Shown piece after piece: positions 1-63,551 of a stretch of 64,000 nt of DNA. The DNA is from an uncultured Calditrichaceae bacterium (GTDB lineage: Bacteria > Calditrichota > Calditrichia > Calditrichales > Calditrichaceae). The notes beneath the pieces were generated by a model. The model saw only the letters and a program-made list of their open reading frames with translations. It was not told the origin of the DNA and searched no databases. Location of the stretch: assembly GCA_964467525.1 (NCBI GenBank), contig CAYXRA010000002.1, positions 32,517-96,516 of the forward strand, written 5' to 3'. Position 1 is the first letter of the stretch; every line of letters begins with the position of its first letter. The position numbers were made by a program, and so were the translations under genes.

Positions 1-1622
1 AACAAATATACCTGACAGAAGCCGCTTCAATCGAAGTGGCTGCCTCTGAGGCGCCGCAAACACTCTCCACGGGGCAGACATTTCAGTACAGCCTGTCGGC
101 AAACCTGATCAGCGACCTGATCAATCCGGTGGCGCTGATCGAAACATCCGTGGGTTTGGGCGGGAATACGGTCAATATTCCACTGGATCAAAATAACGAA
201 GCCCAGTTGCAAATGTCTGTTCCTGCTCAATACAGCGGAACCGGCGCCGATACTATTCGCGCAATGCTCTACGGAACGGATGCCAACAGCGGCAAAACCG
301 TGACCGCCGCCGCGGTGGATGAAGAAATTGTAACGATTCAGAAAAAGGCCCGCTTAAGCTTGACCAATCCAAGGTTACTGCCCGATTTTGTTAACCGCTC
401 TAAGGAAATCTCACGCGGACAGGGCATCGAGGTCCGCGTGAAACCCGATTCCTCTGCAAAAACAGGCCCGCTGCCCTATGCAGCCATCACCGGTATCGGC
501 AGGGTTGCGCTCGATTCTTCGATAAAATCGCTGGGCTTCACCCTGGATGGCGGCGGTAGCTGGGAAAAATCATTTACCGGATACGGCCAGACGCTGAGCT
601 GGAAAATCAAAGCCCCGCGTGATACAAACGTGACGGTTAGTCTGAACCTGAAATTTACGCAGCTGCCGCTGGATGAAAATATCGGCGAACAAGCCGACAT
701 CGCCGCCGATTCCGGTATTGTTGGCATTCCGGTGCGGGTCAGACAGAAAACAGTTGAAGTGAATGTGCTCAATAATCTGATCACACAGAAACAGTTCAGC
801 AAGGGCGATCAAAACAGACCGCTTCTGGCCTTCAGAATTTCAAATGCTAATTACGATGAAAGTCTGAAAGTTAAAGGGGTGAACCTTGAATTCTTTACCA
901 GCACTGGTGCGCTGATTGAAGAGAATAAACTGAATTCCAAATCTCTGGTCAGTATGTTGAATACACTCAGCGTGGTGGATTACAGCGAAGCCGCATCGTT
1001 ACTTGCGAAACCAAAATCAGTTCGCAGTGTCGATGCATATATCGATTATCAGTTTACCGATACCACCGATAATCCGTTGTGGCTGAATTTCAGCGAAACG
1101 GCGGTAATTCCCGCGGGCGACATCGATACCATGGTAATCATTGCCGAATTTCAGGACAATGCGGTAAACCGTGGATTCCGGACCGTACTGCGAAATATTT
1201 TCGCTTATGACTACGATGAAAATACCGCCCTGGATATTATCGACAGCAGCGGTGTCAATATCACGCAGAGCGGGGCGTTTGAGTCGGAACCCTTAACTAT
1301 TGTTTCCGAAGATCCGGAAGACGCCTTTTACAATTATCCCAATCCCTTCGGCAGACAGTATCCCTCCACATGGATTAAATTCCGTCTCGAAAATCCTTCG
1401 GATGTGCAGATACGTATTTTTACCCTGTTAGGTGAGCTGGTCTGGAGTTGGGAAGGCAGCGACCTGCCCGGGGGTCTGTACGAAAATCTGGTACGCTGGG
1501 ACGGAAAGAATGATCGCGGTAATATTGTTTTAAACGGTGTTTATCTGGGCACCATCGATATTAAGCCGCAAAACGGTCAGTCGGCCAAAAGATATATAAC
1601 AAAGATCGCTTTCATAAAATAA
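1..1622 (+). CDS. Secreted protein with T9SS C-terminal sorting domain, 5'-truncated at the window edge
   Basis: The reading frame is open from nt 3 to the stop at 1620-1622, and the tracked start at 36 is only an internal GTG. The last ~90 aa (YPNPFGRQ...VQIRIFTLLGELVW...WDGKNDRGNIVLNGVYL...) fit the T9SS type-A / FlgD-Ig-like C-terminal domain pattern. I do not recognise the rest. Confidence 0.6.
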   Translation, partial: QIYLTEAASIEVAASEAPQTLSTGQTFQYSLSANLISDLINPVALIETSVGLGGNTVNIPLDQNNEAQLQMSVPAQYSGTGADTIRAMLYGTDANSGKTVTAAAVDEEIVTIQKKARLSLTNPRLLPDFVNRSKEISRGQGIEVRVKPDSSAKTGPLPYAAITGIGRVALDSSIKSLGFTLDGGGSWEKSFTGYGQTLSWKIKAPRDTNVTVSLNLKFTQLPLDENIGEQADIAADSGIVGIPVRVRQKTVEVNVLNNLITQKQFSKGDQNRPLLAFRISNANYDESLKVKGVNLEFFTSTGALIEENKLNSKSLVSMLNTLSVVDYSEAASLLAKPKSVRSVDAYIDYQFTDTTDNPLWLNFSETAVIPAGDIDTMVIIAEFQDNAVNRGFRTVLRNIFAYDYDENTALDIIDSSGVNITQSGAFESEPLTIVSEDPEDAFYNYPNPFGRQYPSTWIKFRLENPSDVQIRIFTLLGELVWSWEGSDLPGGLYENLVRWDGKNDRGNIVLNGVYLGTIDIKPQNGQSAKRYITKIAFIK

Positions 1623-1636
1623 ACGAGAGAATAATC

Positions 1637-3547
1637 ATGCGCAGTGATTTTATAAAAATAATTTGTCCGGCATTTTTAATAGTGCTGCTCGCCACGCAGA
1701 TGAATTATGCCGAAGAAGGTCAGGCCGGAACGGAAAGTAATATTAAAATGGGATTCGGCGCCAGAGCGCTTGGTCTGGGTCAGGCTTTTACGGCGATGGC
1801 CGATGATCCCACCGCCGTGTTCTGGAATCCGTCCGGTCTGGAATTTGTCCATCAGCAAAGCGTCACCTTCTTTCATACCACGCTTTTCGAGGGTACGATG
1901 TACGACTTTTTAGGTTATGCATATCCGACCTTAAACCTGGGTACCTTCGGAATCGGCGTCGGCAGGATAGGCACCGGCAATGTTACGCAGCGCGATATCC
2001 TGGGCAATGATTTGGGCAATTTTACTTTTGAGGAATACCACGGATTTTTTTCCTACGCCAAAAAACTGCCCTGGGATTTTACCGGCGGGCTTAGCGTTCG
2101 GGTAATCCGTCGCGGCTGGAACAGTTTGCAGGAAGAAGGCGATCTGGTCGATACGGGGGTGGGGCTGGATTTCGGTATGATGTACAAACCGCAAATCTTT
2201 ACCTCGGTGCTTTTGCGGGACTGGAGTTTCGGTCTGAGTCTGCGCAATTTATTTGCTCCGCAGGTTAATGAGGGCGAAGCTATTGATGAATTTCCGTTAA
2301 CAGTGCGTCTGGGCATTCTAAGAAAACTTTATCTGATGGGTGAAGGAAATCGGCTCAACTTTTTAATGGATTTCGATTATTCTGAAAAAAGAGATTTACT
2401 GCTTCATTTTGGTTTGGAATACCGTTTCAGGGAAATGGGCATGCTGCGCGCCGGTTTCGACGGCAAAGGATTAACCTTCGGCGCCGGTACGCAATACAGC
2501 ATTTTTCAGATTGATTATGCATTCGGAAGCAGTCCTTATGCTGATGTATTCTCATCGGTACACCGTTTTTCATTATCTGTGAATTTTGGCCGCAATCGTG
2601 ATGAGATGTTCGAAATTGTCGCCGCCGAACAAAAGGCTGAAGAAGAACGCATTATTGCCGAAATAAGAGAAGCAGACCGGCAGCGTTATATCGCTGAGCA
2701 TCTGAAGCAGGGAGAAGAATACTTTGAAGAAGAACGTTATCTGGATGCTATGGTTGAGTATCGTCAGGTATTATTGCAGGATGCCTACAACAACCGGGCC
2801 CGTGTGATGATCGATTCATCGGAAGCGCTCCTGCAGAAAGAATTCGACGAACGGCAGTCAAGCGCCGTACAGCAGGCTTTGGATAAAGATCGTGCCGAAA
2901 GTGACCGAGCGTTTGTAACAGAGCATTTTGAAAAAGGACGGAACTATCTGCAAAATAACCAGTTCACCGAGGCTTTGATAGAATTCAACATTGCCCTGGA
3001 ACGTGATCCGGATAATGAAACGATTATCAATGCCATTAATACCACCGAGCGCCGGATAAGTGAAGAAACGTCCAGACTTATCCAGCAGGGCAGAAGGGAA
3101 TTCCAGGCCGGTAATTATTCGGAGGCCTTGCGACTTTTAGGTGATGCTCGTATTTTAGGCGGTGACGACGCGGAGATTCAACGTGAAATAGCCACGCTCG
3201 CTGAGCGCATCAGGCTGACTGAAAATATTCAACGCGGTCTGGAATTGTTTGATATCGGTGAATTCCAGCAGGCGCTTTCCATCTTCGAAGAAGCTCTGAA
3301 TGTTGATCCGGATAACGAACTGGTTCGCCAGTATTACGAACGGGCAAAAATAGAAACTGCCGGCGACCAGGAAAAAATGAGTCCGGAAGCAGAGAAACGC
3401 TATTTACAGGGTGTGGATAAATTCTTGCTTGGCAAGTACGGAGAAGCTATTGAGATATGGGAAAAAATACTGCAGGATTACCCATATAATAAAAAAGTAC
3501 TGACCGCAATAAGAGGAGCCCGGGAGCGACTGAAAGGTCAAAAATAA
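1637..3547 (+). CDS. PorV/PorQ-like outer-membrane beta-barrel fused to a coiled-coil/TPR domain
   Basis: Hydrophobic N-terminal signal, then GARALGLGQAFTAMADDPTAVFWNPSGL, a motif I associate with PorV/PorQ-type barrels. About 300 aa follow with alternating beta-strand character. The C-terminal ~330 aa hold a charged coiled coil plus TPR-like repeats (NNQFTEALIEFNIALERDPDN, GEFQQALSIFEEALNVDPDN, GKYGEAIEIWEKIL). Starts 14 nt after the upstream gene. Confidence 0.55.
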   Translation: MRSDFIKIICPAFLIVLLATQMNYAEEGQAGTESNIKMGFGARALGLGQAFTAMADDPTAVFWNPSGLEFVHQQSVTFFHTTLFEGTMYDFLGYAYPTLNLGTFGIGVGRIGTGNVTQRDILGNDLGNFTFEEYHGFFSYAKKLPWDFTGGLSVRVIRRGWNSLQEEGDLVDTGVGLDFGMMYKPQIFTSVLLRDWSFGLSLRNLFAPQVNEGEAIDEFPLTVRLGILRKLYLMGEGNRLNFLMDFDYSEKRDLLLHFGLEYRFREMGMLRAGFDGKGLTFGAGTQYSIFQIDYAFGSSPYADVFSSVHRFSLSVNFGRNRDEMFEIVAAEQKAEEERIIAEIREADRQRYIAEHLKQGEEYFEEERYLDAMVEYRQVLLQDAYNNRARVMIDSSEALLQKEFDERQSSAVQQALDKDRAESDRAFVTEHFEKGRNYLQNNQFTEALIEFNIALERDPDNETIINAINTTERRISEETSRLIQQGRREFQAGNYSEALRLLGDARILGGDDAEIQREIATLAERIRLTENIQRGLELFDIGEFQQALSIFEEALNVDPDNELVRQYYERAKIETAGDQEKMSPEAEKRYLQGVDKFLLGKYGEAIEIWEKILQDYPYNKKVLTAIRGARERLKGQK

Positions 3548-3566: not shown

Positions 3567-6500
3567 ATGTTCAAAAATGTCAAAAAAGAAGAAATAACGA
3601 TTCCGGCACAGATGAGTTACCTCTTGCAGGTGCGCGAATTTATCGAGCACATCGGCAAAAAATACCGCTATGAAGACAAGCTGGTAAACTCATTCAAGCT
3701 GGTGATCGATGAGGCCTGTACCAATGTCATTCGTCATGGTTACCGCGATATCAAAAACGGTGAGATCACCATAAAAGCAATTATCCGCCGTCTCAGTCTG
3801 ACGATAATTATTGTCGACAAGGGAAAGAGTTATGATATACGTCAGGCCAACACGCCTGATCTGGCCAAATATGTGGATATCGGTAAACGGGGCGGACTGG
3901 GCATCCTAATGATGCGTAAGCTGATGGATGATATCCAGTATTCGGTTACCGAACGCGGCAATGAGATGCGCTTAACGAAATATCGCGAAAATTTGCGGGA
4001 ATCGGCCCTGATGCAGCGCTGGCAGTCGCTGAATATGCGCGTTAAATACTCGATTTTTGCATCGATCATTTTCACCCTCGTTTGTGTGATTATTTTCGCA
4101 CCGCTTTTTTTCAGCGTTAACAGCGATGTCCAGGATGAAGTGTTCAGAGCCACGGCCTCCGGAACGCGATCGCTTGCCGACAATGCGATCAATGACATGT
4201 TAAACGGTCTGGATTTTCTTTTATCCGAAAAATCCCGCTCGCTTAAAAATAACTATAAAAATATTATAGAAGAAGTTTACATTGTAGATGAAGACAGTGC
4301 AGTTATAGCTGTCGCTAATCCGGCAAAATATGATTCTCTTGGCCGGTATACGATCCCTGCGCGGGCGGCATTAGTCGATACCATTGGTCAGGTATCCATT
4401 TATAAATATCCCGTAAATGATTCGCTGGCCGTATTTGACCTGAGTACGGAGATCAGGGAAGACCTGATGGGCGGCGGCGATATTCTGGGGTATGTCCATG
4501 TCTGGATCGATCAACAGAAACTGACCGATCTGAGCAATAATAAAAAGATAAGCCTGGCCATTATTTTAACCGTTATACTGATCATTGGCTATTTAAGCGC
4601 TTTCTTCCTCATTCATCGAATCCTGATGCCTTTCCACAGTCTGGCCGACTGGGTTCGGCAGGTTGTGCGCGGCAAGGTCGATCAGGATGAAATCGACATC
4701 GATGCTTCCGACGAACTAGGTGAAATTGCCCAGGCCTTTAATGAAATGACCAATAAATTCCGCGAGGCGCAGGTTACTCTCGTGGAACAGGAAAAGCTTC
4801 AGAAAGAGCTGCAGGTTGCCCAGGAAATTCAGCAAATGCTGCTTCCCAGTGATTTTCCCCATGTAGAAGGTTATGAAATAGCTTCCTATTATGAGGCGGC
4901 CAAGGAGGTGGGCGGCGACCTGTTTGATTTTGTTGATGTCGATGAAGATACGATTGGTATTTGTGTGGCCGACGTTGCCGGTAAAGGCGTGCCCGGTTCG
5001 ATGATTATGACAATGATCCGTACGGCATTGCGCCTTGAATCCCGCGGGAATAAGAATCCGGCCGATGTACTGGCAAAGGTTAACCGCTTTGTTGCCGATG
5101 ATATGAAACGCGGTATGTTTGTTACCATGTTTTATCTTATCCTCGATTCACGCAACCGGATTATTCACTATGCCAGCGCCGGCCACAATCCTATGATCCT
5201 CTACCGCCGGTCGGCCAGGCAAACCTACTATTTGAATCCATCGGGATTTCCTGTAGGTATCCAGTTACCGGATCTGACGCTTTTTGACAGGAAAATCGAA
5301 ACCGATTCCATTCGCCTGCAGGAAGATGATATTTTAGTGCTTTATACCGACGGTATCACCGAGGCAATGAATATTGAAAGAGAGCTCTACCGCGAAGAAC
5401 GTTTCCTCGATGCCATTCGCGATAATGCGCACCTGGACGTCGGAGAGTTTGTCAAAAGCATTAACAGCGACATAAAAACATTCACCGGCGGGGCGCAGCA
5501 AAATGATGACATCACTTTTGTTTCAATCAAAGAAAAATTAATGCAGAGCGAAGTGATACTGCGCGTACATGAAAAACTGGTGAATATGATCGATAACGGT
5601 AAAACCGTTAAAGACGCACTGGAAGAATTACGCGTATCCCCGCATTTTTACTACAAACATAAAAATATTATCGACCGTAAGGGGATCGCCGGTTTAAAGC
5701 AGTATTTGGAAGAACAGGATTACATAGAAAAGAAACACCTGTCCATAGAGACCAAAGCAAAATTATTTGACATTATCCGCGAGCATCCGGACTATGGCCC
5801 GAAACGCATCTGTCATGAACTGCGCGGGGATAAATACGGCAATACCAAAATCGATGATAACCGCCTTTACAATGAACTGGTAAAAATGCGCCTGAATACC
5901 GAAGAACGACGTCGCAAATTTATTGAAAAAGGCGGAAAAAAGCGTCTGAAGCAACCGGGTACGCCGCTGCTGACACTGGATGGCCAGGTTATATTAAATT
6001 TTGAATCTGCGGAAAAACAGGTAAGCGGAGGTAAGAAAGACGAGGCCAACCAGCATTCCAAACAGATGCCGCCGCCTCCGAAACCGGATGAATCAAAACC
6101 GGTCAAAAAAGAAATTATTAAAAGTGCCGACAAACCGGAACCGGGTTTGGAAGCAGCAAGCGCTGATAAATCACCAGGTAAAATGATGCATAAACCGGCG
6201 CGTTATTTTGAATCCAAAGAGGAAGTTAAATCCGCCGATCAGCAACAGACGCTGCCCGAACCGGATAAGAAAAAATCAGAGAAAAAGAGACAGGCGCAGC
6301 CGGCTGCGGAGAAAAAGCAAATAAAAGAAAAAGAAACAAAAAAGGAAAAAGAGCCTGAAGTTGAAGCCGAAATAAGAAAAGCAACGCCGACTAAAGAAGA
6401 ACTCCTCGAACAAGTAAACGGCAGCATTGACCAGAAGAAAATCTCAAAATTCTTTTCACTCGTTGATGATGATTTGCAGGTAATTGTACAGAAAATCAGA

Positions 6501-6929
6501 AGTCTGCATCAGAGCGATCAGATCGGGCCGGACATAAAAAAAATTAATTTAATACTGAAAATTATCCTAAAACATCCGATGCTGAAAGAACTGGGATATA
6601 TAAAGCAGGTATTTGAGCAAGTTCAGGAGATTTTCGGCTTTATAGACTATCATATAGAAGAGATAGAACAGAAGGATATCTATGCAAATGTCAAAGATTT
6701 GTTGAATTATTTTGAAAAAGACAATAAATTAGGTAATTACAATAACTTGTTAGAGGCAATCAATCAGATCGGACTAATTAACAGAAAAATCCGGGCAAAA
6801 ATAAAACCCAAAGATTCAAAACAAGATGATAAAATATTAAAAATCCGGGAAAAGTTAGCCCAAAAGAAAGTAATTACAAAAAAAGAATTATTAGAATCGT
6901 TGTCAAAGGATAAAGAGGGCAGCGCCTGA
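3567..6929 (+). CDS. Fusion protein: RsbW/SpoIIAB-like Ser kinase, 2 TM with extracytoplasmic loop, HAMP, PP2C (SpoIIE/RsbU) phosphatase, HTH_21-like module, K/E/P-rich linker, helical C-terminal domain
   Basis: Kinase motifs: N-box DEACTNVIRHGY, G-boxes DKGKSYD and GGLGILMMRKLMD. TM segments YSIFASIIFTLVCVIIFAPLFF and ISLAIILTVILIIGYLSAFFLIH. HAMP-like SDELGEIAQAFNEMT. PP2C motifs EIQQMLLP, GGDLFDF, VADVAGKGVPGSMIM, YTDGITEA, NDDITFV. Then IIREHPDYGPKRICHELRG...LYNELVKMRLN. RBS-like GGACGAG lies upstream of the ATG. Confidence 0.8.
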   Translation: MFKNVKKEEITIPAQMSYLLQVREFIEHIGKKYRYEDKLVNSFKLVIDEACTNVIRHGYRDIKNGEITIKAIIRRLSLTIIIVDKGKSYDIRQANTPDLAKYVDIGKRGGLGILMMRKLMDDIQYSVTERGNEMRLTKYRENLRESALMQRWQSLNMRVKYSIFASIIFTLVCVIIFAPLFFSVNSDVQDEVFRATASGTRSLADNAINDMLNGLDFLLSEKSRSLKNNYKNIIEEVYIVDEDSAVIAVANPAKYDSLGRYTIPARAALVDTIGQVSIYKYPVNDSLAVFDLSTEIREDLMGGGDILGYVHVWIDQQKLTDLSNNKKISLAIILTVILIIGYLSAFFLIHRILMPFHSLADWVRQVVRGKVDQDEIDIDASDELGEIAQAFNEMTNKFREAQVTLVEQEKLQKELQVAQEIQQMLLPSDFPHVEGYEIASYYEAAKEVGGDLFDFVDVDEDTIGICVADVAGKGVPGSMIMTMIRTALRLESRGNKNPADVLAKVNRFVADDMKRGMFVTMFYLILDSRNRIIHYASAGHNPMILYRRSARQTYYLNPSGFPVGIQLPDLTLFDRKIETDSIRLQEDDILVLYTDGITEAMNIERELYREERFLDAIRDNAHLDVGEFVKSINSDIKTFTGGAQQNDDITFVSIKEKLMQSEVILRVHEKLVNMIDNGKTVKDALEELRVSPHFYYKHKNIIDRKGIAGLKQYLEEQDYIEKKHLSIETKAKLFDIIREHPDYGPKRICHELRGDKYGNTKIDDNRLYNELVKMRLNTEERRRKFIEKGGKKRLKQPGTPLLTLDGQVILNFESAEKQVSGGKKDEANQHSKQMPPPPKPDESKPVKKEIIKSADKPEPGLEAASADKSPGKMMHKPARYFESKEEVKSADQQQTLPEPDKKKSEKKRQAQPAAEKKQIKEKETKKEKEPEVEAEIRKATPTKEELLEQVNGSIDQKKISKFFSLVDDDLQVIVQKIRSLHQSDQIGPDIKKINLILKIILKHPMLKELGYIKQVFEQVQEIFGFIDYHIEEIEQKDIYANVKDLLNYFEKDNKLGNYNNLLEAINQIGLINRKIRAKIKPKDSKQDDKILKIREKLAQKKVITKKELLESLSKDKEGSA

Positions 6930-6958: not shown

Positions 6959-7660
6959 ATGGAAGGAATACAGGTCTCAACCGAGATCGCCGGTAGCCGG
7001 AATCACATTTCAATCATTAAAGTTGGTGGGTACATCGATACAACCACCTCATCCGAACTCGAACGGGCTTTGGATTCACTGTTAAAGCAAGGTCGTTTCT
7101 ATATTATTATCGACCTGGGTAATGTCGACTATATCAGTAGCGCCGGCTGGGGTATTTTCATCAGTGAAATTAAGTCAATCCGGGAGAACGGCGGCGATTT
7201 AAAATTGGTACGCATGGTTCCCGATGTGTATGAGATTTTCGAATTACTGGAGTTTCATCATATTCTCGATGTCTACGATACGGTAGATGAAGCTATAAAT
7301 AAGTTTGAAATGCTTGAGGCAGCGGGAAAACCGGTGGCAAAAGAAATATCCCTGCCGAAAGCCGAGCCGGAACAGGAAACTACAGGTTCCGGGGAAAAAC
7401 AAGAACGTAAAGAAACCTCTGAAGCCGTTATCGCAGAAGAAGAAAAAGAACAGGTAAATCCGGCTGACCTGAGTCTCGATGAAAAACTGAGAATGATTAT
7501 TCGTGAAAATCCCTCCTATGGGGCGTTTAAAATTAAAAAAGAGCTCAATACAGCAAAGTACGGTTATACTAAAGTAGGCTGGTTTATCGTACGTTCCGAG
7601 CTTTCCAAGTTAAACCTGAATACCCGTGCACGCAGATACGAATATGCCACCTCGTTATAA
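6959..7660 (+). CDS. STAS-domain anti-sigma-antagonist-like protein (SpoIIAA/RsbV family) with acidic linker and C-terminal HTH_21-like module
   Basis: The STAS core includes VDYISSAGWGIF, with the candidate phospho-Ser in DYISSAG, and KLVRMVPDVYEIFELLEFHHIL. An E-rich linker follows, then IIRENPSYGAFKIKKELN...VRSELSKLNLN. Strong RBS AAAGGAGG lies upstream. Confidence 0.8.
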   Translation: MEGIQVSTEIAGSRNHISIIKVGGYIDTTTSSELERALDSLLKQGRFYIIIDLGNVDYISSAGWGIFISEIKSIRENGGDLKLVRMVPDVYEIFELLEFHHILDVYDTVDEAINKFEMLEAAGKPVAKEISLPKAEPEQETTGSGEKQERKETSEAVIAEEEKEQVNPADLSLDEKLRMIIRENPSYGAFKIKKELNTAKYGYTKVGWFIVRSELSKLNLNTRARRYEYATSL

Positions 7661-7674
7661 ACAGGGAGATCATT

Positions 7675-8175
7675 ATGCATACGGTTTTGGATATTGCATT
7701 GGTTTCAGTGCTCGTATTTTCCGTGTTTTCTAATTTTTATGGTTTTCCCGGTAATTTTCTCATCGCTCTCGGCAGTCTTTTCTATGGCGTTGGTACCGGC
7801 TTCCGTGAAATTACCGTTTCTTTTGTTATCATAATATTTTGCGTTGTGCTGTTCATCGAATTTGTTGAATTTCTGTTAATCGCATTTACAGCCAGGAAAT
7901 ACGGATCGTCAAAGTGGGGCATTTTCGGAGCGATATTCGGCGGGGTTATCGGTGCTATCGGCGGTACCTATTTTTCACCGTTGCTAGGCGTCATCATCGG
8001 TTCTTCAATCGGCGTTTTTCTCGGGGCGTTTATATTAGAGCTGATTAATAATTCTAATGTGAAACAAAGTCTGCTTTCAGGATTCGGTGCATTTCTGGGC
8101 AGAGTTGGGGGGCTTTCCATAAAGATGATCGGTGCGGTTACCATGGCAAGCATGATCTTATTGAGAATCATATAA
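7675..8175 (+). CDS. Small polytopic membrane protein, DUF456-like
   Basis: 166 aa with four hydrophobic Gly-rich segments. FYGFPGNFLIALGSLFYG near the N-terminus resembles DUF456 proteins as I recall them. It is the last gene of the operon, starting 14 nt after the STAS gene. Confidence 0.45.
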   Translation: MHTVLDIALVSVLVFSVFSNFYGFPGNFLIALGSLFYGVGTGFREITVSFVIIIFCVVLFIEFVEFLLIAFTARKYGSSKWGIFGAIFGGVIGAIGGTYFSPLLGVIIGSSIGVFLGAFILELINNSNVKQSLLSGFGAFLGRVGGLSIKMIGAVTMASMILLRII

Positions 8176-8204
8176 ATTGATTTCAAATAGTATTAAATTG
8201 TCTT

Positions 8205-8237
8205 CCCGAAATGATTCGTCATTCCGGGATTTTTTTT
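8205..8237 (+). terminator. Rho-independent terminator candidate closing the 1-8175 operon
   Basis: CCCGAAATGA-TTCG-TCATTCCGGG forms a 10-position stem with one mismatch, followed by a run of 8 T. Confidence 0.5.
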
Positions 8238-8449
8238 ATCAAACCTTTATACGGCTATCTCATTAAAGTTTTTAACGTTTTGGATTAGTAATGAATTTAC
8301 GCAGATCATTTATTTGGTGCCGTTTAAATTAATTGAAACTTATGAACGTCAGACAGGTTATTAATTTAAATTTGATTTTAATAAATAAAAATAATAAGTA
8401 ATAAAACAGCTAAAGGCATTGTAAACGAAGAAAAGCCCGAAAAGATCAA

Positions 8450-9118
8450 ATGAAGAGGGAAGCGGCTTTGAAACGATATCTTATTTTTGCGTTGATTATG
8501 TTCGCGCTGAAACCGATTTTTGCACAGGAAGTCACGCCGGTGCGCATCAAATATGACGGCGGCGGAGACTGGTACGGAAATAAAACCACCTGGAAGAATA
8601 TTTTAAGTAAAGCAGAAGATGTGCTGGGCCTCGAAGTTACGGATCGTGAGGCGGCTTACCGAATTTTGGATCCGGAATTCAGGCAATATCCGATCGCTTA
8701 TATTTCAGGACACGGCAATATTCATTTTTCTGAAAGGGAAGCACATGCCCTGCGTGAATATTTAATAAACGGCGGATTTCTCTTCGCCGATGATGACTAC
8801 GGGATGGATCAATCATTTCGCCGCGAAATGAAGAAAGTATTTCCGGAACTCGAATTTGTCGATCTGCCGTTTTCTCACACAATCTATCATATTTTTTATC
8901 AGTTTGACAAAGGATTGCCAAAGATTCACGAACATGACGGCGGACCGCCCAGGGGGCTGGGATTGATTTATGAGGATCGTCTGGTATGTTTTTACAGTCT
9001 GAATACCGACATCAGTGATGGCTGTGAAGATCCGGAAATTCACAACGATCCGCCCGATGTGCGTTCCAAAGCGCTAAAAATGGCGCTGAATATCTTATTA
9101 TACGCCATATTAAATTAA
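8450..9118 (+). CDS. DUF4159 domain protein
   Basis: Signal peptide, YDGGGDWY, YPIAYISGHGNIHFSEREAHALREYLINGGFLFADDDYG, LPKIHEHDG and DPEIHNDP match my recollection of the DUF4159 family consensus. Confidence 0.65.
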   Translation: MKREAALKRYLIFALIMFALKPIFAQEVTPVRIKYDGGGDWYGNKTTWKNILSKAEDVLGLEVTDREAAYRILDPEFRQYPIAYISGHGNIHFSEREAHALREYLINGGFLFADDDYGMDQSFRREMKKVFPELEFVDLPFSHTIYHIFYQFDKGLPKIHEHDGGPPRGLGLIYEDRLVCFYSLNTDISDGCEDPEIHNDPPDVRSKALKMALNILLYAILN

Positions 9119-9122
9119 AACC

Positions 9123-12100
9123 ATGCAAAAAGAAGAACAAAAAATAACAGACAAGATTTACCGTTTCGGTAAAAAAAAGTTACTGTTCGAACTGACAGGC
9201 AGTGTTTTATTCTTACTCTTGATCTTAATTATCATCTGGCTGAGCGCTGCCCTTGCTGATAATCTGGTCTATTTTTCCGAAATAACCCGCTGGGGATTGC
9301 TGTCGATTAATACTGTCCTGATTTCGTATTTATTGTTCAAGTTTTTATTTTATCCGCTTAAACGGCTCATTGCTTTAAAAAAACATTCCGATCTCAGCCA
9401 AACAGCCGGGTTGATCGGTAGAATGTATCCTGAAATTAAAGACCGCCTGGTCAACACTTATCAACTGGTTTCGCGCAGTCCTGATGAAAATACTTCAGAC
9501 GCGCTGCATCGTGAAGCGGTTAAATCCAATCTGGCGCAATTCAGGAACCGGAATTTCTCCGCGATACTGAAAATAAAATCATTTTTACCGGCGCCTGTTC
9601 TTTCCGTTGTAGTGCTGATCAGTTTTATTGTGCTGACGGGATTGATGTACAATGATCTATTGCATGCAAGCAAGCGCTTGTTGAATCCCTCTAATGAATA
9701 CAAGATTTTACCGGCTTACCGGTTTGTCGTCGAGCCGGGCGATACACAGATAACCAAAGGACAGTCGCTTACCTTAAACGCCCGCTACAGGGGGCCGCTG
9801 CTCGAAGCCTGCTATTTGTATCTGTGGACACCGGATAATCCGTCCGTATCCCGCGTACTGGAGATGAATTTGGAGGACAGCACTTATTCAGCCGCAATTA
9901 AGGATATAATTAAATCCCAGTCCTACCAGATACGTGGTGTGCCCATGGACAGCCGGCAGTATGAAAATACCATATTTTCGGAACAGTTTACCATTGATGT
10001 GCGCATTCCACCAATGATCGAAACCCTGGATGTGGAGCTGATTCCGCCCGCTTACTCGGGTTTGCCCCGGCAGTTTCCGGACAGAAATATCGGGGATATA
10101 GCAGCATTAGCGGGAACGATTGTCCGTCTTAAGGTCAGCACCAATCACGCCGTGCAGTCGGCCCAAATACAGTTCAAATCCGGAAAAACCGTACCTTCTG
10201 ATATACGGGGCGAACTGCTGAACGGACAATTTCAGATCCGGCAAAATGACAATTATTCCATAATCTTAAACGATACACAGGGATTGCAAAATCAGAATCC
10301 AATCGAATATCAAATAGCTCTGTTGCCGGATAATCCGCCCTTTATCGAAATTACCGAACCGGGCAGAGATGTTGAAATTCAGCTGGATGCCGCCATTCGT
10401 CTGAAGATGGAGGGCAGTGATGATTTCGGCATTGGCAGGGTAAAGCTCTATTATAAATTTCTGCGACAATCAAAAACGGCTACCGATACGAACTGGCAGC
10501 ATATTGTGCTGCCCCTGCAAGCCCAATCTGATAATCGTTTTGAAATTTTCCATTACTGGGATTTCAACAAGCTGCCCCTGGCTTTTAACGACGGCATTAA
10601 GTATTACGCGCATGTCGAGGACAACAACTCGGTTACCGGGCCGGGTATCGGAAAGAGCGAAACCTATTATATTCGCTTTCCTTCGCTGGATGAGATTTTT
10701 GATTCCTTTGCTGAAAAAGAAGCCGAGGAAATAGATAATCTGGAAGAGGTTAACAAAGAGTCGGAAGAGCTTAAAAAATCGCTGGAAGAAATTCAACGTG
10801 AATTGAAGCGGGAAAGTAAACTGGACTGGGAGAAGAAACAACAGCTCGAAAGCGCCCTGGAAAAGCAAAAAGAATTACAGGACAAAGTCGAGGAAATACA
10901 GAAAAACATCGAAGAGCTTGTCAATAAATTAGACGCCAACAATCTTATCAGTGAAGAGATTCTTGAAAAATACAGTCAGTTGCAGGAATTGTTCAGAGAA
11001 GTGATTACGCCGGAAATGATGGAATCTCTGCAAAATTTGCAGGAGGCGCTGGAAAAACCGGATCAGGAAAATATCCGGCAGGCCATGCAGCAATTCAAGC
11101 TGAATCAGGAAGTCTTTAAAGAGCGCATCGAGCGGACAATGGAACTGCTGAAGCAGGTGCAACTGGAGCAACGCATGGATGAGCTGGTTCAAAAGGCGAA
11201 GAAACTAAAGGAACAGCAGGAAAAAATCAGCGAGCAGCTCAATAAGGAATTAGAGCCCGATGAAGGTGAATATGAACAGTTGAAGGCACAGCAGGAGCAA
11301 CAGGCTGAAAAACTGAACAACCTGGAAAAAAGCCTGGAATCGATGCTCAGGGAACCGCGCGTGGCAAAGTTTCAGGAAACGATGCAGCAGTTGGATTCAG
11401 CGCGGCAGCAGATTGGTGCGGAAGACCTGCAGAACGAAATGGGGCAAATGCAGCAGAGTCTGGAACAGAACAATCGTCAACAAGCCGGTCAGCATTCCGA
11501 AAAATTAAGGCAAAATTTTGCCGGCATTCAAAATCAACTGCAACAGGCCCAGTCTCAAATGATGAATCAGAACAAGCAACAGGTTATGCAAAAAATGGCC
11601 TCCGCCATGCAAAAGATGCTCAAACTTTCCCACGAACAGGAAAAACTGCAGCGCGAAACACAGCGCTCTTCCGATTACAGCAGTGGTTTTAAAGATATTG
11701 CCGCAGAGCAGGCGCAATTAAAAAATAATTTCCGCAATCTGATATCCGATCTGGTGCAGCTTTCCAAAGAAACCTTTTTTGTCAATCCCGAATTAAGCAG
11801 GTCGATGGCCAAAAGTATGCGCAATATGGATCAAAGCCTCAGTAACCTATCGGAGCGTAATCGCGGCGCCTCGGCATCGAATCAGGAAAAAGCGCTTGGC
11901 GGATTAAATGAGAGTATTCAAATGATGCATGAATCCATGTCCAGCCTGTCTCAGTCTCAGTCCGGTACCGGTTTCAATCAGTTTCTGGAACAGTTACAAC
12001 AAATGGCCGGTCAGCAGGGACAGATTAATGAGCAGACAATGAGTCTGCTGCAAAAGCAGGGCAATCAGGGCAGTCTGATGATGCGCGAGCAGGCCCGCCG

Positions 12101-12527
12101 AAAACGACTGGCCGCGGAACAGGCCGCCCTGCAGCAAGCCATGGAAGGCATGCAGAAGGGCATGGGCAACAGGCAGGATGTTTTGGGCCGCATGAATGAG
12201 ATTGCGGCGGAAATGGAAAAAGTGGTTGAAGATCTCATTAAAAATAATGTAGACCGCAAAACGATCGAACGGCAAAGAAAGATCCTTTCGCGCATGCTCG
12301 ATGCTCAGAAATCAGTGCGGGAAAGAGAGTTTTCGAAAAAACGCAAGGCGGAAACAGCGAAAGCGTATCTGGCAAAAGATCCAGGTGAACTGCGCAATTT
12401 AACGGATTTGGATAAAAAAGCGATAGAAGAGGCCCTGCGGCGCGCCCTGAATGAAGGCTATAACCGCGATTATCAAAAATTAATCGAAGCCTATTTCAAC
12501 AAATTGATTCGCAGTAAAGAAGAATAA
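9123..12527 (+). CDS. Large membrane-anchored coiled-coil, Q-rich protein, DUF4175-like
   Basis: N-terminal TM segments, a central beta-rich region, then ~600 aa of E/K/Q-rich coiled coil. It starts 4 nt after the DUF4159 gene, and DUF4159 commonly pairs with DUF4175-type proteins. The family call is from memory only. Confidence 0.45.
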   Translation: MQKEEQKITDKIYRFGKKKLLFELTGSVLFLLLILIIIWLSAALADNLVYFSEITRWGLLSINTVLISYLLFKFLFYPLKRLIALKKHSDLSQTAGLIGRMYPEIKDRLVNTYQLVSRSPDENTSDALHREAVKSNLAQFRNRNFSAILKIKSFLPAPVLSVVVLISFIVLTGLMYNDLLHASKRLLNPSNEYKILPAYRFVVEPGDTQITKGQSLTLNARYRGPLLEACYLYLWTPDNPSVSRVLEMNLEDSTYSAAIKDIIKSQSYQIRGVPMDSRQYENTIFSEQFTIDVRIPPMIETLDVELIPPAYSGLPRQFPDRNIGDIAALAGTIVRLKVSTNHAVQSAQIQFKSGKTVPSDIRGELLNGQFQIRQNDNYSIILNDTQGLQNQNPIEYQIALLPDNPPFIEITEPGRDVEIQLDAAIRLKMEGSDDFGIGRVKLYYKFLRQSKTATDTNWQHIVLPLQAQSDNRFEIFHYWDFNKLPLAFNDGIKYYAHVEDNNSVTGPGIGKSETYYIRFPSLDEIFDSFAEKEAEEIDNLEEVNKESEELKKSLEEIQRELKRESKLDWEKKQQLESALEKQKELQDKVEEIQKNIEELVNKLDANNLISEEILEKYSQLQELFREVITPEMMESLQNLQEALEKPDQENIRQAMQQFKLNQEVFKERIERTMELLKQVQLEQRMDELVQKAKKLKEQQEKISEQLNKELEPDEGEYEQLKAQQEQQAEKLNNLEKSLESMLREPRVAKFQETMQQLDSARQQIGAEDLQNEMGQMQQSLEQNNRQQAGQHSEKLRQNFAGIQNQLQQAQSQMMNQNKQQVMQKMASAMQKMLKLSHEQEKLQRETQRSSDYSSGFKDIAAEQAQLKNNFRNLISDLVQLSKETFFVNPELSRSMAKSMRNMDQSLSNLSERNRGASASNQEKALGGLNESIQMMHESMSSLSQSQSGTGFNQFLEQLQQMAGQQGQINEQTMSLLQKQGNQGSLMMREQARRKRLAAEQAALQQAMEGMQKGMGNRQDVLGRMNEIAAEMEKVVEDLIKNNVDRKTIERQRKILSRMLDAQKSVREREFSKKRKAETAKAYLAKDPGELRNLTDLDKKAIEEALRRALNEGYNRDYQKLIEAYFNKLIRSKEE

Positions 12528-56975: not shown

Positions 56976-57304
56976 AATATCAGGATAATTAAATCATCAC
57001 CCTAAATCAATTGGCTTAAGTTTTAATTAAAAATCTCGAAAGTGGAAGAACGAAAAAATGTGATTATTCGGATAAAACCACATTGTTGTTTAATTAAATT
57101 AAGGATCATTAATTCGTGAAAAAAAATCAATTTTTGGGAATTTTATGACTTAAAGCACAATTTTGTATATGTTAATTATTTTATTTAACACAAAACGAAA
57201 ATATATAATAATGTCAAATATTTTAATGAAAAAATTTATATTTCCGATATTTTAAAAGGCAGCTTATTTAATAGAGGGATCGTTTGTTAGCCAGCATTGA
57301 TACA

Positions 57305-58267
57305 ATGGAAAAACAAGAATTGAAAAACACACTGATCGTCGGCTGGAATGTCGAGGCGGTTTCGCTTTACGATCGACTTCTGGATGCCCCTTATCTTGGC
57401 TATAACGTTCGTGGGTTTATCAAGCCGGCCGGCGTTGGAAAAAGTACGCATTACAAAAATGTTCCGGTCGTAGGAGATTTGTCTGATCTGGCGGAAGTCA
57501 GTAAAAGGCTTGAAATTGCCGAGATCCTGATTGTCCTTACGGACAATGAAAAAAAGTACCTGGCTGAAGTCATCCGTGAGTGTACTAAGTACAATATCGG
57601 ATATAAAGTTGTTGCGGATACCTATGATTCTCATTATGGACATGTTGTTCGTGATATTATCAGGGACGCCTGGAAACCACAGGAATTTGGCATTCGGCGG
57701 ATACTTGATGTGGTTGGCGCTTTAGTCTTGTTGATTTTGTTGTTTCCTTTATTTATAATCGTGGCAACGGCAATTAAGCTGGAATCGCACGGACCGGTAT
57801 TTTATTCCCAGCAACGATATGGAAAAGACGGAACCATATTCGCCGTACATAAATTTCGTTCAATGGTTCAGGATGCGGAAATGCGGTCTGGGCCAGTCTG
57901 GGCGACAAAATCAGATCCAAGAATTACGAGAGTAGGCCGTTTCATGCGCAAAACCCGTATCGATGAACTGCCACAGCTAATGAATGTGCTGAAAGGAGAT
58001 ATGAGTTTTATCGGACCGCGGCCGGAACGGCCCTTTTTTGCTGATAATTTTAAAAAACAGATACCCTTCTACATGAATCGCTTACGTGTGAAACCGGGCA
58101 TTTCTGGTTTGGCACAGGTTACTGTGGGGTATGATGAAACGCTTGAGGACGTTAAGGAGAAAGTTGCCCAGGATAATGCTTATATTGAGCAGAGAGATTC
58201 ATTAAAAATGAACCTGAAAATAATCTGGAAAACATTTGCCGTTCTATTAATGGGAGAAGGACAATAA
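57305..58267 (+). CDS. Polyprenyl-phosphate glycosyl-1-phosphate transferase (Bac_transf family, EPS priming enzyme)
   Basis: [47 protein letters not shown] and [10 protein letters not shown]. The N-terminus has a CoA-binding-like fold and a single TM segment. Confidence 0.85.
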
Positions 58268-58508
58268 TTTTTGTAAAGTTGATAAATTTAACTAAAAAAA
58301 TCCCAAAAAATGGCGAATCTAAATAATAAGATAAAGTGGACACTTTATCTGAAGCGTAGAAATTTTTTTAATTTAAAAAGCGTCTCACAAAAAATTACGC
58401 TGAAATACATGTCGGCCCGTAAGCTAAGCATGTAGACATTTAAGCTTGCAGTAAAACGCCATACTGTAATTAACGGGGCGGAGCTATAAAAAAAAGGCAA
58501 TATTTGAT

Positions 58509-59321
58509 ATGGAAAAAATAAAAATTGATTCTAAATTTGCTGATCAGAGTGGCGAGATAATGGTCGTTGAATTGGGCGGCCATGTGGATCAATCCAATAG
58601 TTATCAATTACAAAAAATGTTTGATAATATCATCCAGAGCGGCTGCTTTAAGGTGATTGTCGATTTTAATGATCTGTATTACATGAGCAGCGCCGGCTGG
58701 GGTATCTTCGTCGGTGAAATCAAAAGATTCCGTGAAAACGGCGGTGATATAAAACTGGCTAATATGAATCCGGAAATTTATGATGTTTATCAAATGCTTG
58801 AATTTTATCATATACTTGAAGATTATTCAGACGTGGAAAATGCCGCCGCTTCATTCAGAAAATCCGAAAGTGAACTGGATTTGGTACTTGACTCGGATGA
58901 CGATGAAGCAGTGCCAGATAATCTGAGTGATATTGAAGAAAGCACCGAGGAAATCGAGCTTGTCGATCCCCTGATGGAAGATACTTCAGATTACTCCGGG
59001 ACGGCTGACAGTGAAGACAATGAAGTAATAGATTTTAGTTCGGAAAAAACAACCGAATTTGATGCAAACAAAAAAGGACTAACAGAGTTTATTCCGCATA
59101 CGCTTACCACAGATGTAAAACTTGCCGATCTGCCTCTGGCTGAAAAAATAAAACGGGTTGTGGCGCAAAATCCACTGGTCGGTCTTTTTGGAATCAGAAA
59201 AGTTTTGAGACATGAACAATTCGGGAAAACTAAGGTAGGCGTTTTCCGCCTTATGAGATTACTGAGGGAACTGGACCTGCATACGAAGGAAAAAAGGTAT
59301 CGTTATTATCGTTCCTGCTAA
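58509..59321 (+). CDS. STAS-domain protein, paralogue of 6959-7660, with acidic linker and C-terminal HTH_21-like module
   Basis: The STAS core LYYMSSAGWGIFVGEIKRFRENGGDIKLANMNPEIYDVYQMLEFYHIL closely matches the 6959 protein. A D/E-rich linker of ~90 aa follows, then VVAQNPLVGLFGIRKVLRHEQFGKTKVGVFRLMRLLRELDLHTKEKRYRY. Confidence 0.75.
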   Translation: MEKIKIDSKFADQSGEIMVVELGGHVDQSNSYQLQKMFDNIIQSGCFKVIVDFNDLYYMSSAGWGIFVGEIKRFRENGGDIKLANMNPEIYDVYQMLEFYHILEDYSDVENAAASFRKSESELDLVLDSDDDEAVPDNLSDIEESTEEIELVDPLMEDTSDYSGTADSEDNEVIDFSSEKTTEFDANKKGLTEFIPHTLTTDVKLADLPLAEKIKRVVAQNPLVGLFGIRKVLRHEQFGKTKVGVFRLMRLLRELDLHTKEKRYRYYRSC

Positions 59322-59337
59322 TAATAAGGAATTGAAA

Positions 59338-60045
59338 ATGCATATAAACATTTTTATGAAATTAATAATCATAATGCTGATTTTTGTCTTCGCATCGATG
59401 ACATTTGCCCAGCAAAATAATTTTAACAGTGATGAGCTCGTCGGCGATCCGGACTTAGCGGTTTACCCGTTTAAACCCGGTGATGCGATTTTTATCAGTA
59501 ATTTACCGGACACCACCTCACTTCTGAATGGCATATTTGCAATTGATGATCGCGGTTTCGCTGAATTTCCCATGATAGGGAAAGCCAATGTCAGTAAAAT
59601 GACCAGAGATGAACTCATCGAATTTTTAAAAACCAGGCTTCGGGATCAACTGAAATATCCCAACCTGTATGTAAAGCCGGTGGTTCGGATTAGCCTGCTC
59701 GGCGGTTTCAGAAGACCGGGGTTATATTATGTCGATATAAACAGTTCACTCTGGGAAACCGTCAGACTTGCCGGTGGCACGATCATGGAAGAAGGTATTT
59801 ATGAGCTGCGCTGGGAGCGGAACGGTGACGAAAAATCAGATGAAGTAGTTAAATTTTTTGAAAGCGGGACTTCATTAAAAAGAATGGGTTTCAAATCCGG
59901 CGACCAGGTCTGGACGCCGTCACCGGATAGAGAAACATTCTGGGATAAGGTACGCGATATGATGCCTATTCTGACTTTCGCCACAACAGTGTTTGTTGTG
60001 TACAGTACCTATCAGCGCGATCAGGTTCTGCTAAATCGTTATTAA
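59338..60045 (+). CDS. Polysaccharide export protein (Wza/Poly_export plus SLBB-like)
   Basis: Signal peptide, PGDAIFISNLPD (a PGD...I motif as in the Poly_export domain), and a downstream beta-grasp-like GDQVWTP. Its position directly upstream of the Wzc-like gene also supports the call. ATG follows AAGGA. Confidence 0.55.
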   Translation: MHINIFMKLIIIMLIFVFASMTFAQQNNFNSDELVGDPDLAVYPFKPGDAIFISNLPDTTSLLNGIFAIDDRGFAEFPMIGKANVSKMTRDELIEFLKTRLRDQLKYPNLYVKPVVRISLLGGFRRPGLYYVDINSSLWETVRLAGGTIMEEGIYELRWERNGDEKSDEVVKFFESGTSLKRMGFKSGDQVWTPSPDRETFWDKVRDMMPILTFATTVFVVYSTYQRDQVLLNRY

Positions 60046-62519: not shown

Positions 62520-63551
62520 ATGCAAGTTAAGTATTTGACCGAAGCAGAATACGATCGGTGGGATGATTATGTGGACAACCATCCCGGGTCAAAAATATAT
62601 CATAAAATTGCCTGGAAAAAAATAATTGAGCAGGCTTTCGAAAAAAAGTCCTTATATTTTTATGTGGAACAGGAAGGACAGATTCGGGGAATCATGCCCT
62701 TGATAAAGTTCTCAGGCTTTTTGACCGGTAAGGTTTTGATATCGTTGCCATTTGTGAACTACGGCGGTATGATTTACGATAATGAAAAGGTTAGGGATGC
62801 CATTTTAGCAGAATTACAGGAAGTCCGTGAAAGAGAAGACGCCGATTCCGTGGAATTGCGCACATCGGGATATCAGCAATTCGAATTGCCGGAACGGTCA
62901 AATAAGATCACATTTTTGATGGACCTTCCCGATTCAACGGATGAACTCATGAAACAGTTCAAATCCAAAGTACGCAGTCAGATCCGCCGGCCTGAAAAAG
63001 AAGAAATGTATGTAAAGTGCGGCGGCAGTGAACTGCTTGACGGATTCTATCGAATATTTTGCAGAAATATGCGGGATTTGGGTACGCCCGTTTACGGTAA
63101 GAAATTTTTTAAAACAATTTTAAATGAAATTCCTGATCATTCAAATATTATCACCGTATATACCAAAAATCATCTGCCGGTAGCAAGCGCTTTTATTATC
63201 GGTTACGGTAATATTATGGAGATACCATGGGCCTCATCATTGAGGGAATACAATCGTTATAGTCCGAATATGCTGCTTTATTGGGAAGTTATGTCCGAAG
63301 CGATCCGTCAGGGCCGGAAAATTTTCGATTTTGGCCGCGGCACCAAAGACGGCGGGACATATCGCTTCAAAAAACAATGGGGCGGTGAAGAAGTGCAGCT
63401 GCGCTGGTATTATCTGTTGGCGGAAGAAGCAGCTATGCCCGAACTTAATAAAGAAAACCCCAAATATGCTCTGGCAATCAGAGCCTGGCAAAAAATACCG
63501 CTTTCACTTGCAAATTTAATCGGACCTGTCATTATAAAAAATATACCATAA
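62520..63551 (+). CDS. FemAB-like acyltransferase-fold protein (resembles the PEP-CTERM-system-associated FemAB family)
   Basis: WDDYVDNHPGSKIYHKIAWKKII...GIMPLIKFSGFLTGKVLISLPFVNYGG and C-terminal YRFKKQWG resemble that family as I recall it. Confidence 0.65.
   Translation: MQVKYLTEAEYDRWDDYVDNHPGSKIYHKIAWKKIIEQAFEKKSLYFYVEQEGQIRGIMPLIKFSGFLTGKVLISLPFVNYGGMIYDNEKVRDAILAELQEVREREDADSVELRTSGYQQFELPERSNKITFLMDLPDSTDELMKQFKSKVRSQIRRPEKEEMYVKCGGSELLDGFYRIFCRNMRDLGTPVYGKKFFKTILNEIPDHSNIITVYTKNHLPVASAFIIGYGNIMEIPWASSLREYNRYSPNMLLYWEVMSEAIRQGRKIFDFGRGTKDGGTYRFKKQWGGEEVQLRWYYLLAEEAAMPELNKENPKYALAIRAWQKIPLSLANLIGPVIIKNIP

Follow-up and report, generated by a model that had tools for sequence, protein, structure and literature searches.

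A transposase-type helix-turn-helix module shared by a predicted kinase/phosphatase fusion and STAS proteins of Calditrichota and candidate division KSB1

We examined a 64,000-nt stretch of the genome of an uncultured Calditrichaceae bacterium (GenBank assembly GCA_964467525.1, contig CAYXRA010000002.1, positions 32,517 to 96,516 of the forward strand; hereafter, the window), in which three proteins of a predicted partner-switching system, a fused serine kinase/phosphatase (the fusion) and two STAS proteins (STAS-1 and STAS-2), have in common a module of about 70 aa. Sequence comparisons identify this module, with high confidence, as the domesticated second helix-turn-helix (HTH) of the DNA-binding region of an IS481/IS3-type transposase, a bipartite region that the fusion retains in its entirety. 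Because the module is carried by the kinase/phosphatase and its presumed STAS substrates throughout Calditrichota and candidate division KSB1, these switch proteins may themselves act on DNA and in this way control surface-polysaccharide genes.

A module common to three proteins of the window

The fusion gene (3567..6929, 1120 aa) is directly followed by the STAS-1 gene (6959..7660, 233 aa), and the STAS-2 gene (58509..59321, 270 aa) lies 52 kb from these two; all three are open reading frames (ORFs) on the + strand. An initial annotation, made from the sequence alone, had proposed that the three products share a segment of about 55 aa, and the peptides that it quoted are present at aa 732-785 of the fusion (nt 5760-5921), aa 176-229 of STAS-1 (nt 7484-7645) and aa 213-266 of STAS-2 (nt 59145-59306). 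The similarity among the three copies is far above chance: BLASTP aligns STAS-1 with the fusion at an E value of 1e-10 (39% identity across 71 aa) and STAS-2 with the fusion at 7e-4, the two STAS proteins align over their full length at 5e-50, and hhalign matches a profile of 111 STAS-borne modules to a profile of 35 fusion-borne ones with a probability of 99.3% (E 1.2e-20). The quoted segments are homologous, but the family hidden Markov model (HMM) places the start of the unit about 10 aa before the coordinates given in the initial annotation, at a conserved L-[SP]-[IL]-x-E-K, so that it spans about 70 aa. With these boundaries, the module, the second, HTH_32/HTH_21-like HTH of the fusion, occupies aa 717-788 of that protein (5715..5930; family HMM 76 bits) and the extreme C-termini of STAS-1 (aa 163-233, 7445..7657; 104.6 bits, net charge +7) and STAS-2 (aa 201-270, 59109..59318; 102 bits, net charge +10), the last of which ends in a conserved K-R-Y-R-Y-Y-R-S-C. 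The family HMM detected no fourth copy in the window.

Relationship to transposase DNA-binding regions

For the identification of the module, 65 diverse copies were scanned singly against Pfam and NCBIfam, with HTH_21 matches counted at E<0.1. The matches are to transposase-type HTHs: HTH_21 matched 23 of the 65 (best E 3.9e-5), HTH_32 seven and HTH_Tnp_Tc3_2 five, and, among the NCBIfam models, the IS3 transposase model matched 17 (at positions 133-188 of 369, covering the basic stretch past the third helix) and the IS481 model seven. From the window, the STAS-1 module scored 14.5 bits against HTH_21 (PF13276; E 0.044; cut-off 28.1 bits), and the modules of the fusion and STAS-2 gave no HTH_21 match in the module-alone Pfam scan.

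The fusion carries a further HTH directly before the module (HTH1, aa 670-711, 5574..5699), which the STAS proteins lack and the initial annotation had overlooked; it resembles HTH_28/HTH_23, the first HTH of transposases. Pfam matches of the window fusion in this region are marginal (HTH_28, HTH_23 and HTH_32 at E 0.15-0.2, those of HTH1 at 0.15-0.16), and aa 671-784 align colinearly with positions 5-115 of the 284-position IS481 model (NF033577) at E 7.5e-6. Across 21 orthologous segments comprising HTH1 and the module, the IS481 model matched colinearly in 21/21 (best E 1.9e-20) and the IS3 model (NF033516) in 19/21, with HTH_23 detected in 16 (4.9e-14), HTH_28 in 14 (2.3e-13), HTH_32 in 14-16 and HTH_21 in 10. 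HTH1 is conserved in all orthologues, and its motif G-x-S-[IV]-[KR]-[ED]-A-C...Y-Y-x-K-Y-K is kept in both phyla.

The fusion, therefore, presents the bipartite N-terminal HTH region in the order seen in the IS481 and IS3 families, HTH_28/HTH_23 followed by HTH_32/HTH_21. In contrast to these transposases, it has no DDE/rve domain, insertion sequence (IS) ends or frameshift, and the HTHs are fused to signaling domains; HTH_21 usually lies directly N-terminal to an rve (DDE) domain, which is not the case for the module in the window. Full-length IS481 or IS3 matches including the DDE core were not obtained, the window fusion reaching about 26-30 bits against cut-offs of 224 and 160, with a match confined to roughly the first 115 model positions. 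In agreement with the initial annotation, which had noted no transposase catalytic domain nearby, a comparison of three IS3-family OrfB proteins with the six-frame translation of the window revealed no IS3-like catalytic domain (best E 0.7).

Given that all these matches fall below the curated cut-offs, the module is best described as a remote homologue and not as a formal member of HTH_21. The earlier assignment to the HTH_21 of IS3 transposases thus holds as far as a transposase-type HTH is concerned and requires refinement beyond that: HTH_32 is about as good a label, and the nearest full match is to IS481/IS3. Several further observations bear on the relationship. Among the 1.84 billion protein representatives searched, the module profile retrieves proteins with tandem HTH_21 repeats certified by Pfam (P0004, E 2.2e-24, and P0094). 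The hhalign comparison with the N-termini of Escherichia coli InsF, InsK and InsD is weak and involves three sequences only (E 2-5e-4, probability 32-45%); the register is as expected for OrfB N-termini, which supports the register and not homology by itself. Relative to IS3 transposases, the module carries a 3-residue insertion (Y-G-x-T-K) in the loop preceding the last core helix. Profile searches of the module and of HTH1 plus module against PDB sequences gave nothing meaningful.

Structure prediction is in line with an HTH. The AlphaFold2 model of the module (pLDDT 80) is an all-helical bundle of four helices without a wing, and in the model of HTH1 plus module (pLDDT 83, with 111 residues at 90 or above) each of the two forms a helical bundle, with the module helices above 90. 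The module is not an already annotated, common STAS extension, as Pfam and NCBIfam leave it unannotated and none of the databases examined describes it as such. We observed that the JGI annotation labels two metagenome fragments of fusion orthologues (P0162 and P0163) as "transposase," a misannotation that automated pipelines introduce because of the domesticated HTHs; pieces of fusion genes thus already carry it in public data, which makes the family relevant for annotation.

Architecture of the fusion enzyme

From its N-terminus, the fusion consists of an RsbW-like kinase, a TM-sensor-TM (TM, transmembrane) part, a HAMP domain, a PP2C phosphatase, HTH1, the module, a K/E/P-rich low-complexity region and a C-terminal helical domain, and this architecture is kept in 74 orthologues. 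The kinase domain is of the RsbW/SpoIIAB type (HATPase_c_2, PF13581; aa 12-138, 3600..3980; E 4.3e-24, 85.4 bits against a cut-off of 27.4), and the NCBIfam RsbW model matches it at 9e-22, below the cut-off of that model. HAMP (PF00672) covers aa 347-397 (4605..4757; 1.7e-8, 35 bits against a cut-off of 25), and the SpoIIE/PP2C serine phosphatase (PF07228) covers aa 460-655 (4944..5531; 6.6e-50, 170 bits), so that the module sits directly after PP2C and HTH1. No REC domain was matched in the fusion, the center of which is taken up by HAMP and two TM-like segments, one at about aa 157-189 and the other at about aa 322-356; because these hydrophobic segments flank a region of about 140 aa, the protein is very likely a membrane sensor.

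Two other conserved parts of the fusion were observed. Immediately after the module, aa 789-830 (5931-6056) contain a conserved G-G-K-[KR]-R-L-K-x-P-G-T-P-L-L-T-L-D-G-x-V, modeled by AlphaFold2 as a short beta hairpin at low confidence. After the low-complexity region, which is about 160 aa long, follows the conserved C-terminal helical domain (aa 951-1120, 6417-6926); it has no Pfam or NCBIfam match, and phmmer finds it in the Calditrichota orthologues and not in those of KSB1.

Phospho-acceptor serine, linkers and charge of the STAS proteins

By their family matches, STAS-1 and STAS-2 are bona fide STAS domain proteins of the anti-sigma-antagonist type (TIGR00377/PF01740). The STAS domain spans aa 14-112 of STAS-1 (6998..7294; Pfam STAS 74.6 bits, TIGR00377 69 bits) and aa 12-112 of STAS-2 (58542..58844; 57.2 and 65.1 bits), with a TIGR00377 cut-off of 53.45, and the closest solved relatives of both are TM1442, RsbV and SpoIIAA. 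Each has a predicted phospho-acceptor, Ser61, in STAS-1 within Y-I-S-S-A-G (codon 7139-7141) and in STAS-2 within Y-M-S-S-A-G (codon 58689-58691), which aligns with the phospho-serine of TM1442 and RsbV at the start of helix 2 (M-D-S-[AT]-G motif). Of 102 orthologues, 101 retain the sequence Y-[IMV]-S-S-[AS]-G (67/67 of the STAS-1 type and 34/35 of the STAS-2 type). Family knowledge and gene adjacency suggest that the kinase and the phosphatase of the fusion act on these STAS proteins.

Between the STAS domain and the module, both proteins have the long acidic linker described in the initial annotation: 52 aa of low complexity in STAS-1 (7 K/R and 14 D/E over aa 119-170; linker placed at 7313..7444) and 88 strongly acidic aa in STAS-2 (4 K/R and 29 D/E over aa 119-206; linker placed at 58863..59108). 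The linkers of 67 STAS-1-type orthologues have a median length of 50 aa and a net charge of -3, and those of 35 STAS-2-type orthologues a median of 90 aa and a net charge of -10. The STAS domains are likewise negative (-9 to -10), the STAS-borne modules, by contrast, reach medians of +8 to +10 over about 64 aa, and the fusion-borne module is also net positive, at +4 to +5.

Distribution and gene context

The family was surveyed with an exhaustive HMM search of the 1.84 billion representatives, with clusters formed at 50% identity; word-indexed protein searches with the short module gave 2, 11 and 10 matches, all of them fragments, and the census uses the exhaustive search. It comprises 324 clusters at E <= 1e-3, 164 of these at E <= 1e-10, almost exclusively with architectures of the STAS or fusion type. 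The frequency of the STAS-linker-module arrangement, which the initial annotation had suggested surveying, is 54 among the best 150 clusters; the others are 35 of the fusion type, 38 C-terminal fragments, 16 STAS-module proteins with an N-terminal extension (FHA in two), two STAS-module-module proteins, four tandem HTH arrays and one other. No rve/DDE catalytic domain or transposase architecture occurs among these top 150 representatives, and the module is C-terminal in 111 of 152 proteins.

A scan with a class-specific alignment of one genome per species showed that the fusion-type module is encoded in 145 species genomes; the best 80 loci, mostly labeled Calditrichota or candidate division KSB1, were fetched. 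About 68 of the 80 have a STAS-module gene directly after the fusion gene. On the upstream side of the fusion gene, 70 of the 80 loci encode a homologue of the 636-aa protein that occupies this position in the window, and 54 have a giant ORF (>1900 aa in the loci) before it. In the window, the C-terminal end of the giant protein and the 636-aa protein (UPF0164-like N-terminus and TPR repeats, by Pfam) are encoded at 36..3547 on the + strand, and the end of the giant ORF shows a weak match to CHU_C, a type IX secretion signal. We take this pair to resemble a large adhesin with a PorP/SprF-type partner; if this is correct, there may be a link between the switch and a surface adhesin. Three KSB1 genomes have two fusion loci each (L037/L055, L071/L073 and L078/L080), only one of which in each case has a STAS-module neighbor, which suggests paralogous enzymes serving a pool of tagged STAS substrates.

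The STAS-2 gene lies in a different setting. Upstream of it in the window, on the + strand, is a gene for a priming glycosyl-phosphotransferase (EPS_sugtrans, 57284..58267; TIGR03025 337 bits against a cut-off of 295.55; Pfam Bac_transf), and downstream, on the same strand, are genes for a Wza-like exporter (59332-60045; Pfam Poly_export), a Wzc-like chain-length/tyrosine kinase (60065-62407; Pfam GNVR, Wzz and AAA_31) and an XrtA/PEP-CTERM-associated FemAB protein (62520-63551; TIGR03019 364 bits against a cut-off of 260). Scanning metagenomes with modules of the STAS-2 type yielded 41 loci, and all those with flanking sequence have the sugar transferase, the STAS-module protein, the Wza-like and the Wzc-like protein and usually FemAB, in the same order as in the window. 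In the loci with flanks, then, STAS-2 orthologues are always found inside an exopolysaccharide (EPS) cluster of the XrtA/PEP-CTERM type.

Comparison with characterized phospho-switches

The initial annotation had raised the possibility that the STAS proteins are transcription factors switched by serine phosphorylation, and an experimental precedent, albeit with a different HTH, exists in CapS, a repressor that combines STAS with a winged HTH and is inactivated by serine phosphorylation (Chambers et al., EMBO J 2026, PMC13373217). Its dimer comes apart when a GHKL kinase phosphorylates the conserved serine. CapS and its kinase CapK resemble the system in the window in the C-terminal HTH on a STAS protein, the conserved serine on STAS helix 2 and the GHKL (anti-sigma-type) kinase partner, and the window has the corresponding arrangement of a STAS-linker-HTH-like protein and a neighboring gene for a HATPase_c_2 kinase. 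An HTH, without an assigned role, is found on CapK as well (PMC13373217). CapS is a transcriptional output with demonstrated DNA binding, whereas that of the module in the window is only predicted; in CapS (184 aa), STAS is contiguous with a winged HTH of the MarR/ArsR type, whereas in the window an HTH_21/32-like one follows 50-90 aa of acidic linker. Unlike the membrane kinase-HAMP-PP2C fusion, CapK (HTH-STAS-GHKL) is soluble, has single-stranded DNA as its activator and lacks a phosphatase, and CapK-CapS controls immune operons of Proteobacteria, in contrast to the EPS and surface-protein loci of Calditrichota and KSB1. A sequence search of PDB chains with the STAS proteins of the window did not retrieve CapS.

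The enzyme itself is closest in plan to SypE of Vibrio fischeri, a single chain with kinase and PP2C that acts on SypA, a STAS output protein encoded, as STAS-2 is, inside a polysaccharide locus (syp) (PMC10120452). SypE and the fusion have in common an N-terminal RsbW-like serine kinase, a C-terminal PP2C on the same polypeptide and a STAS partner; the center of SypE is a receiver, whereas that of the fusion is TM-sensor-HAMP. Neither SypE nor SypA has an HTH, and SypA (105 aa, STAS only) acts below transcription on an unknown partner. Similarly, in HenR-All4160 of Anabaena, a STAS phosphorylation switch without an HTH controls the exopolysaccharide layer (bioRxiv 10.64898/2026.04.08.717354). 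The SpoIIAB/SpoIIAA/SpoIIE and RsbW/RsbV/RsbU systems match the window in their kinase, STAS and PP2C families and in the position of the phospho-serine. Compared with these canonical partner switches, no sigma factor is evident as an alternative partner of the kinase, the kinase and phosphatase are fused and membrane-bound, and the STAS proteins carry an additional effector-like domain.

Proposed mechanism and alternative explanations

The reading that we tentatively favor, at somewhat short of even odds, casts the STAS proteins as regulators that bind nucleic acid under the control of phosphorylation, with the fusion as their SypE-like bifunctional enzyme. The fusion would be anchored in the membrane, its RsbW-type kinase phosphorylating Ser61 of the STAS domains and its PP2C removing the phosphate, with the TM-sensor-HAMP part setting the balance between the two activities and, hence, the state of Ser61 on several STAS-module proteins. 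The latter would be the outputs, with the basic module binding nucleic acid, most likely DNA at or near their own loci: the XrtA/PEP-CTERM-type exopolysaccharide cluster for STAS-2 and the operon of the giant surface protein for STAS-1. Binding by the module could be gated by the phosphorylation state through a change in STAS dimerization, as in CapS, or, alternatively, through sequestration of unphosphorylated STAS on the membrane kinase. Of the transposase region, the STAS proteins carry only the second HTH, behind an acidic flexible linker, and the fusion has kept HTH1 along with the module. We favor this scheme because of the DNA-binding ancestry of the module, the charge pattern, the C-terminal, effector-like position, the variants in which an input domain precedes STAS and the module, the tandem arrays and the gene context.

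Several observations weigh against it. If the module were simply an output domain, its presence on the enzyme would be left unexplained; the membrane anchoring of this enzyme is unusual for a DNA binder, and the flexibility of a 50-90-aa linker weakens any rigid coupling of the STAS state to HTH geometry. For IS911, the IS3 transposase studied in most detail, specific DNA binding has been assigned to the first HTH, and the region past the leucine zipper has been described as a multimerization (M) domain (PMC2909936), which we infer to be the region equivalent to HTH_21. No family model matched the module at its curated cut-off, and when both AlphaFold2 models were compared with the PDB by Foldseek, nothing reached significance (best E 0.19 and 1.4); the leading hits, the RED subdomain of Sleeping Beauty, Pax paired domains and the TnsB transposase, are suggestive only as to the kind of protein. 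We also searched for an operator upstream of STAS-2. The inverted repeat at 58329-58350 that the initial annotation had put forward as a possible DNA target (AGATAAAGTG-GA-CACTTTATCT) is indeed a perfect palindrome with 10-bp arms, but it is absent from 22 orthologous intergenic regions and is, therefore, probably not a conserved operator; none was found elsewhere in the orthologous STAS-2 intergenic regions. Only one inverted repeat upstream of STAS-2 is conserved, and it has the look of an RNA hairpin, TTGCAG-N-loop-N'-CTGTAA. It is present at 8 loci, with G-U pairs in 6 of the 8, three covarying pairs and a loop of variable length, and is followed by an invariant block (orthologue consensus TTGACGTGGCGGAGCTATAAA, window TTAACGGGGCGGAGCTATAAA). 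Hairpin and block together lie at 58456-58497, about 15-55 nt upstream of the start codon, and are seen also upstream of the STAS-module genes of L081-L096. The G-U pairs and the variable loop give the hairpin the appearance of an RNA element, which could belong to the 5'-UTR, or a promoter-proximal signal and not of an operator for a dimer. A search of the window with Rfam at gathering thresholds gave no match.

That the enzyme and every one of its presumed substrates carry the module, co-conserved across two phyla, would be most simply accounted for if the module had lost DNA binding and become a docking or oligomerization domain, in which contacts between modules, or between module and HTH1, tether the STAS substrates to the membrane enzyme. 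The flexible linker would then let STAS reach both catalytic domains, the enzyme would be specific for the STAS paralogues bearing the tag, and the output would be the STAS domain acting on another protein, for example of the EPS machinery, as proposed for SypA and All4160, which control polysaccharide synthesis below transcription. Such a role, the chief and a serious competitor of the reading above, which we consider possible although on the unlikely side, agrees with the location of the fusion module directly after the PP2C domain, with linkers of a length suited to a tether, with the multimerization role described for the IS911 segment past the leucine zipper (the IS481 leucine-zipper model matches 4 of the 21 HTH1-module orthologues) and with the KSB1 genomes that have two fusion paralogues and many STAS-module paralogues, for which a specificity tag would be useful. 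It is at odds with the lack of charge complementarity, the STAS-borne modules being at +7 to +10 and the fusion copy at +4 to +5, and with the predicted surface positions of the third helix, which are class-specific and not common to both classes. Moreover, canonical STAS-kinase pairs do not need an extra docking domain, tandem module arrays without a STAS or enzyme partner exist (P0004 and P0094), and the fusion retains a conserved HTH1, the DNA-binding domain in IS911, that would be superfluous for docking.

The high positive charge and the aromatic and basic C-terminal tail (K-R-Y-R-Y-Y-R) could also be those of a non-specific polyanion binder that localizes the STAS switch, reading no DNA sequence, to RNA (for instance, the hairpin 5' of STAS-2), anionic lipids, polysaccharide or a lipid-linked intermediate. 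The membrane location of the enzyme partner and the conserved, RNA-like hairpin with covarying pairs just upstream of STAS-2 would fit this explanation; nothing ties the hairpin to the module, though, fold and ancestry both correspond to HTHs that recognize DNA in a sequence-specific manner, and the putative recognition helix is conserved by class, as would be expected for a specific ligand. We regard such non-specific binding as improbable. We attach practically no weight to the modules being functionless relics of IS insertions fused to neighboring genes, or products of mis-assembly, an idea to which transposase ancestry and the JGI label might lend some color. Throughout 145 species genomes and 324 clusters at 50% identity, the module stays in frame and keeps its place in the protein; its phospho-switch partners are intact, and neither a catalytic domain nor IS ends are present. 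Relics of a nearby IS, specifically, we reject in view of the absence of a catalytic domain in the window together with the conservation across the 145 species genomes.

A broader form of the regulatory reading, which we put forward as a speculation with the odds against it, is that a partner-switching network acquired a transposase DNA-binding region in a single event and has since used it as a common address that brings the fusion and STAS-1, STAS-2, FHA-STAS and double-module variants to the same DNA sites or to each other, the STAS proteins acting directly as phosphorylation-gated transcription factors for adhesin and EPS loci across Calditrichota and KSB1. Such a system would be a partner switch that lacks a sigma factor and has a domesticated part of a mobile element as its output domain.

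Partner-switching modules are widespread, and in those without a sigma factor the output is often unknown, the target of SypA being an example. With a DNA-binding-type domain on every STAS substrate, the question of output becomes directly testable in this family. Both halves have known counterparts, CapS for the STAS-HTH phospho-switch and SypE/SypA for the fused kinase/phosphatase with an EPS-linked STAS protein as its substrate; what is unusual here is the domesticated transposase HTH, its presence on both enzyme and substrates and the phylum-wide conservation in association with an XrtA/PEP-CTERM-type EPS cluster. We found no paper that connects STAS with HTH_21 or these proteins with Caldithrix. 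If the proposed mechanism is correct, this would be a second, independent STAS-HTH phospho-switch after CapS and a clear case of domestication of a transposase DNA-binding region into bacterial signaling. It could also give a handle on how XrtA/PEP-CTERM-type exopolysaccharide clusters are regulated in two sediment phyla that have received little study.

Genes downstream of STAS-1

In the window, STAS-1 is followed by DUF456, DUF4159 and DUF4175 genes (7675-12527). These are kept downstream in about 24-31 of the 80 fetched loci, which, among the loci examined, belong to Calditrichota and not to KSB1, and they are probably not core to the switch.

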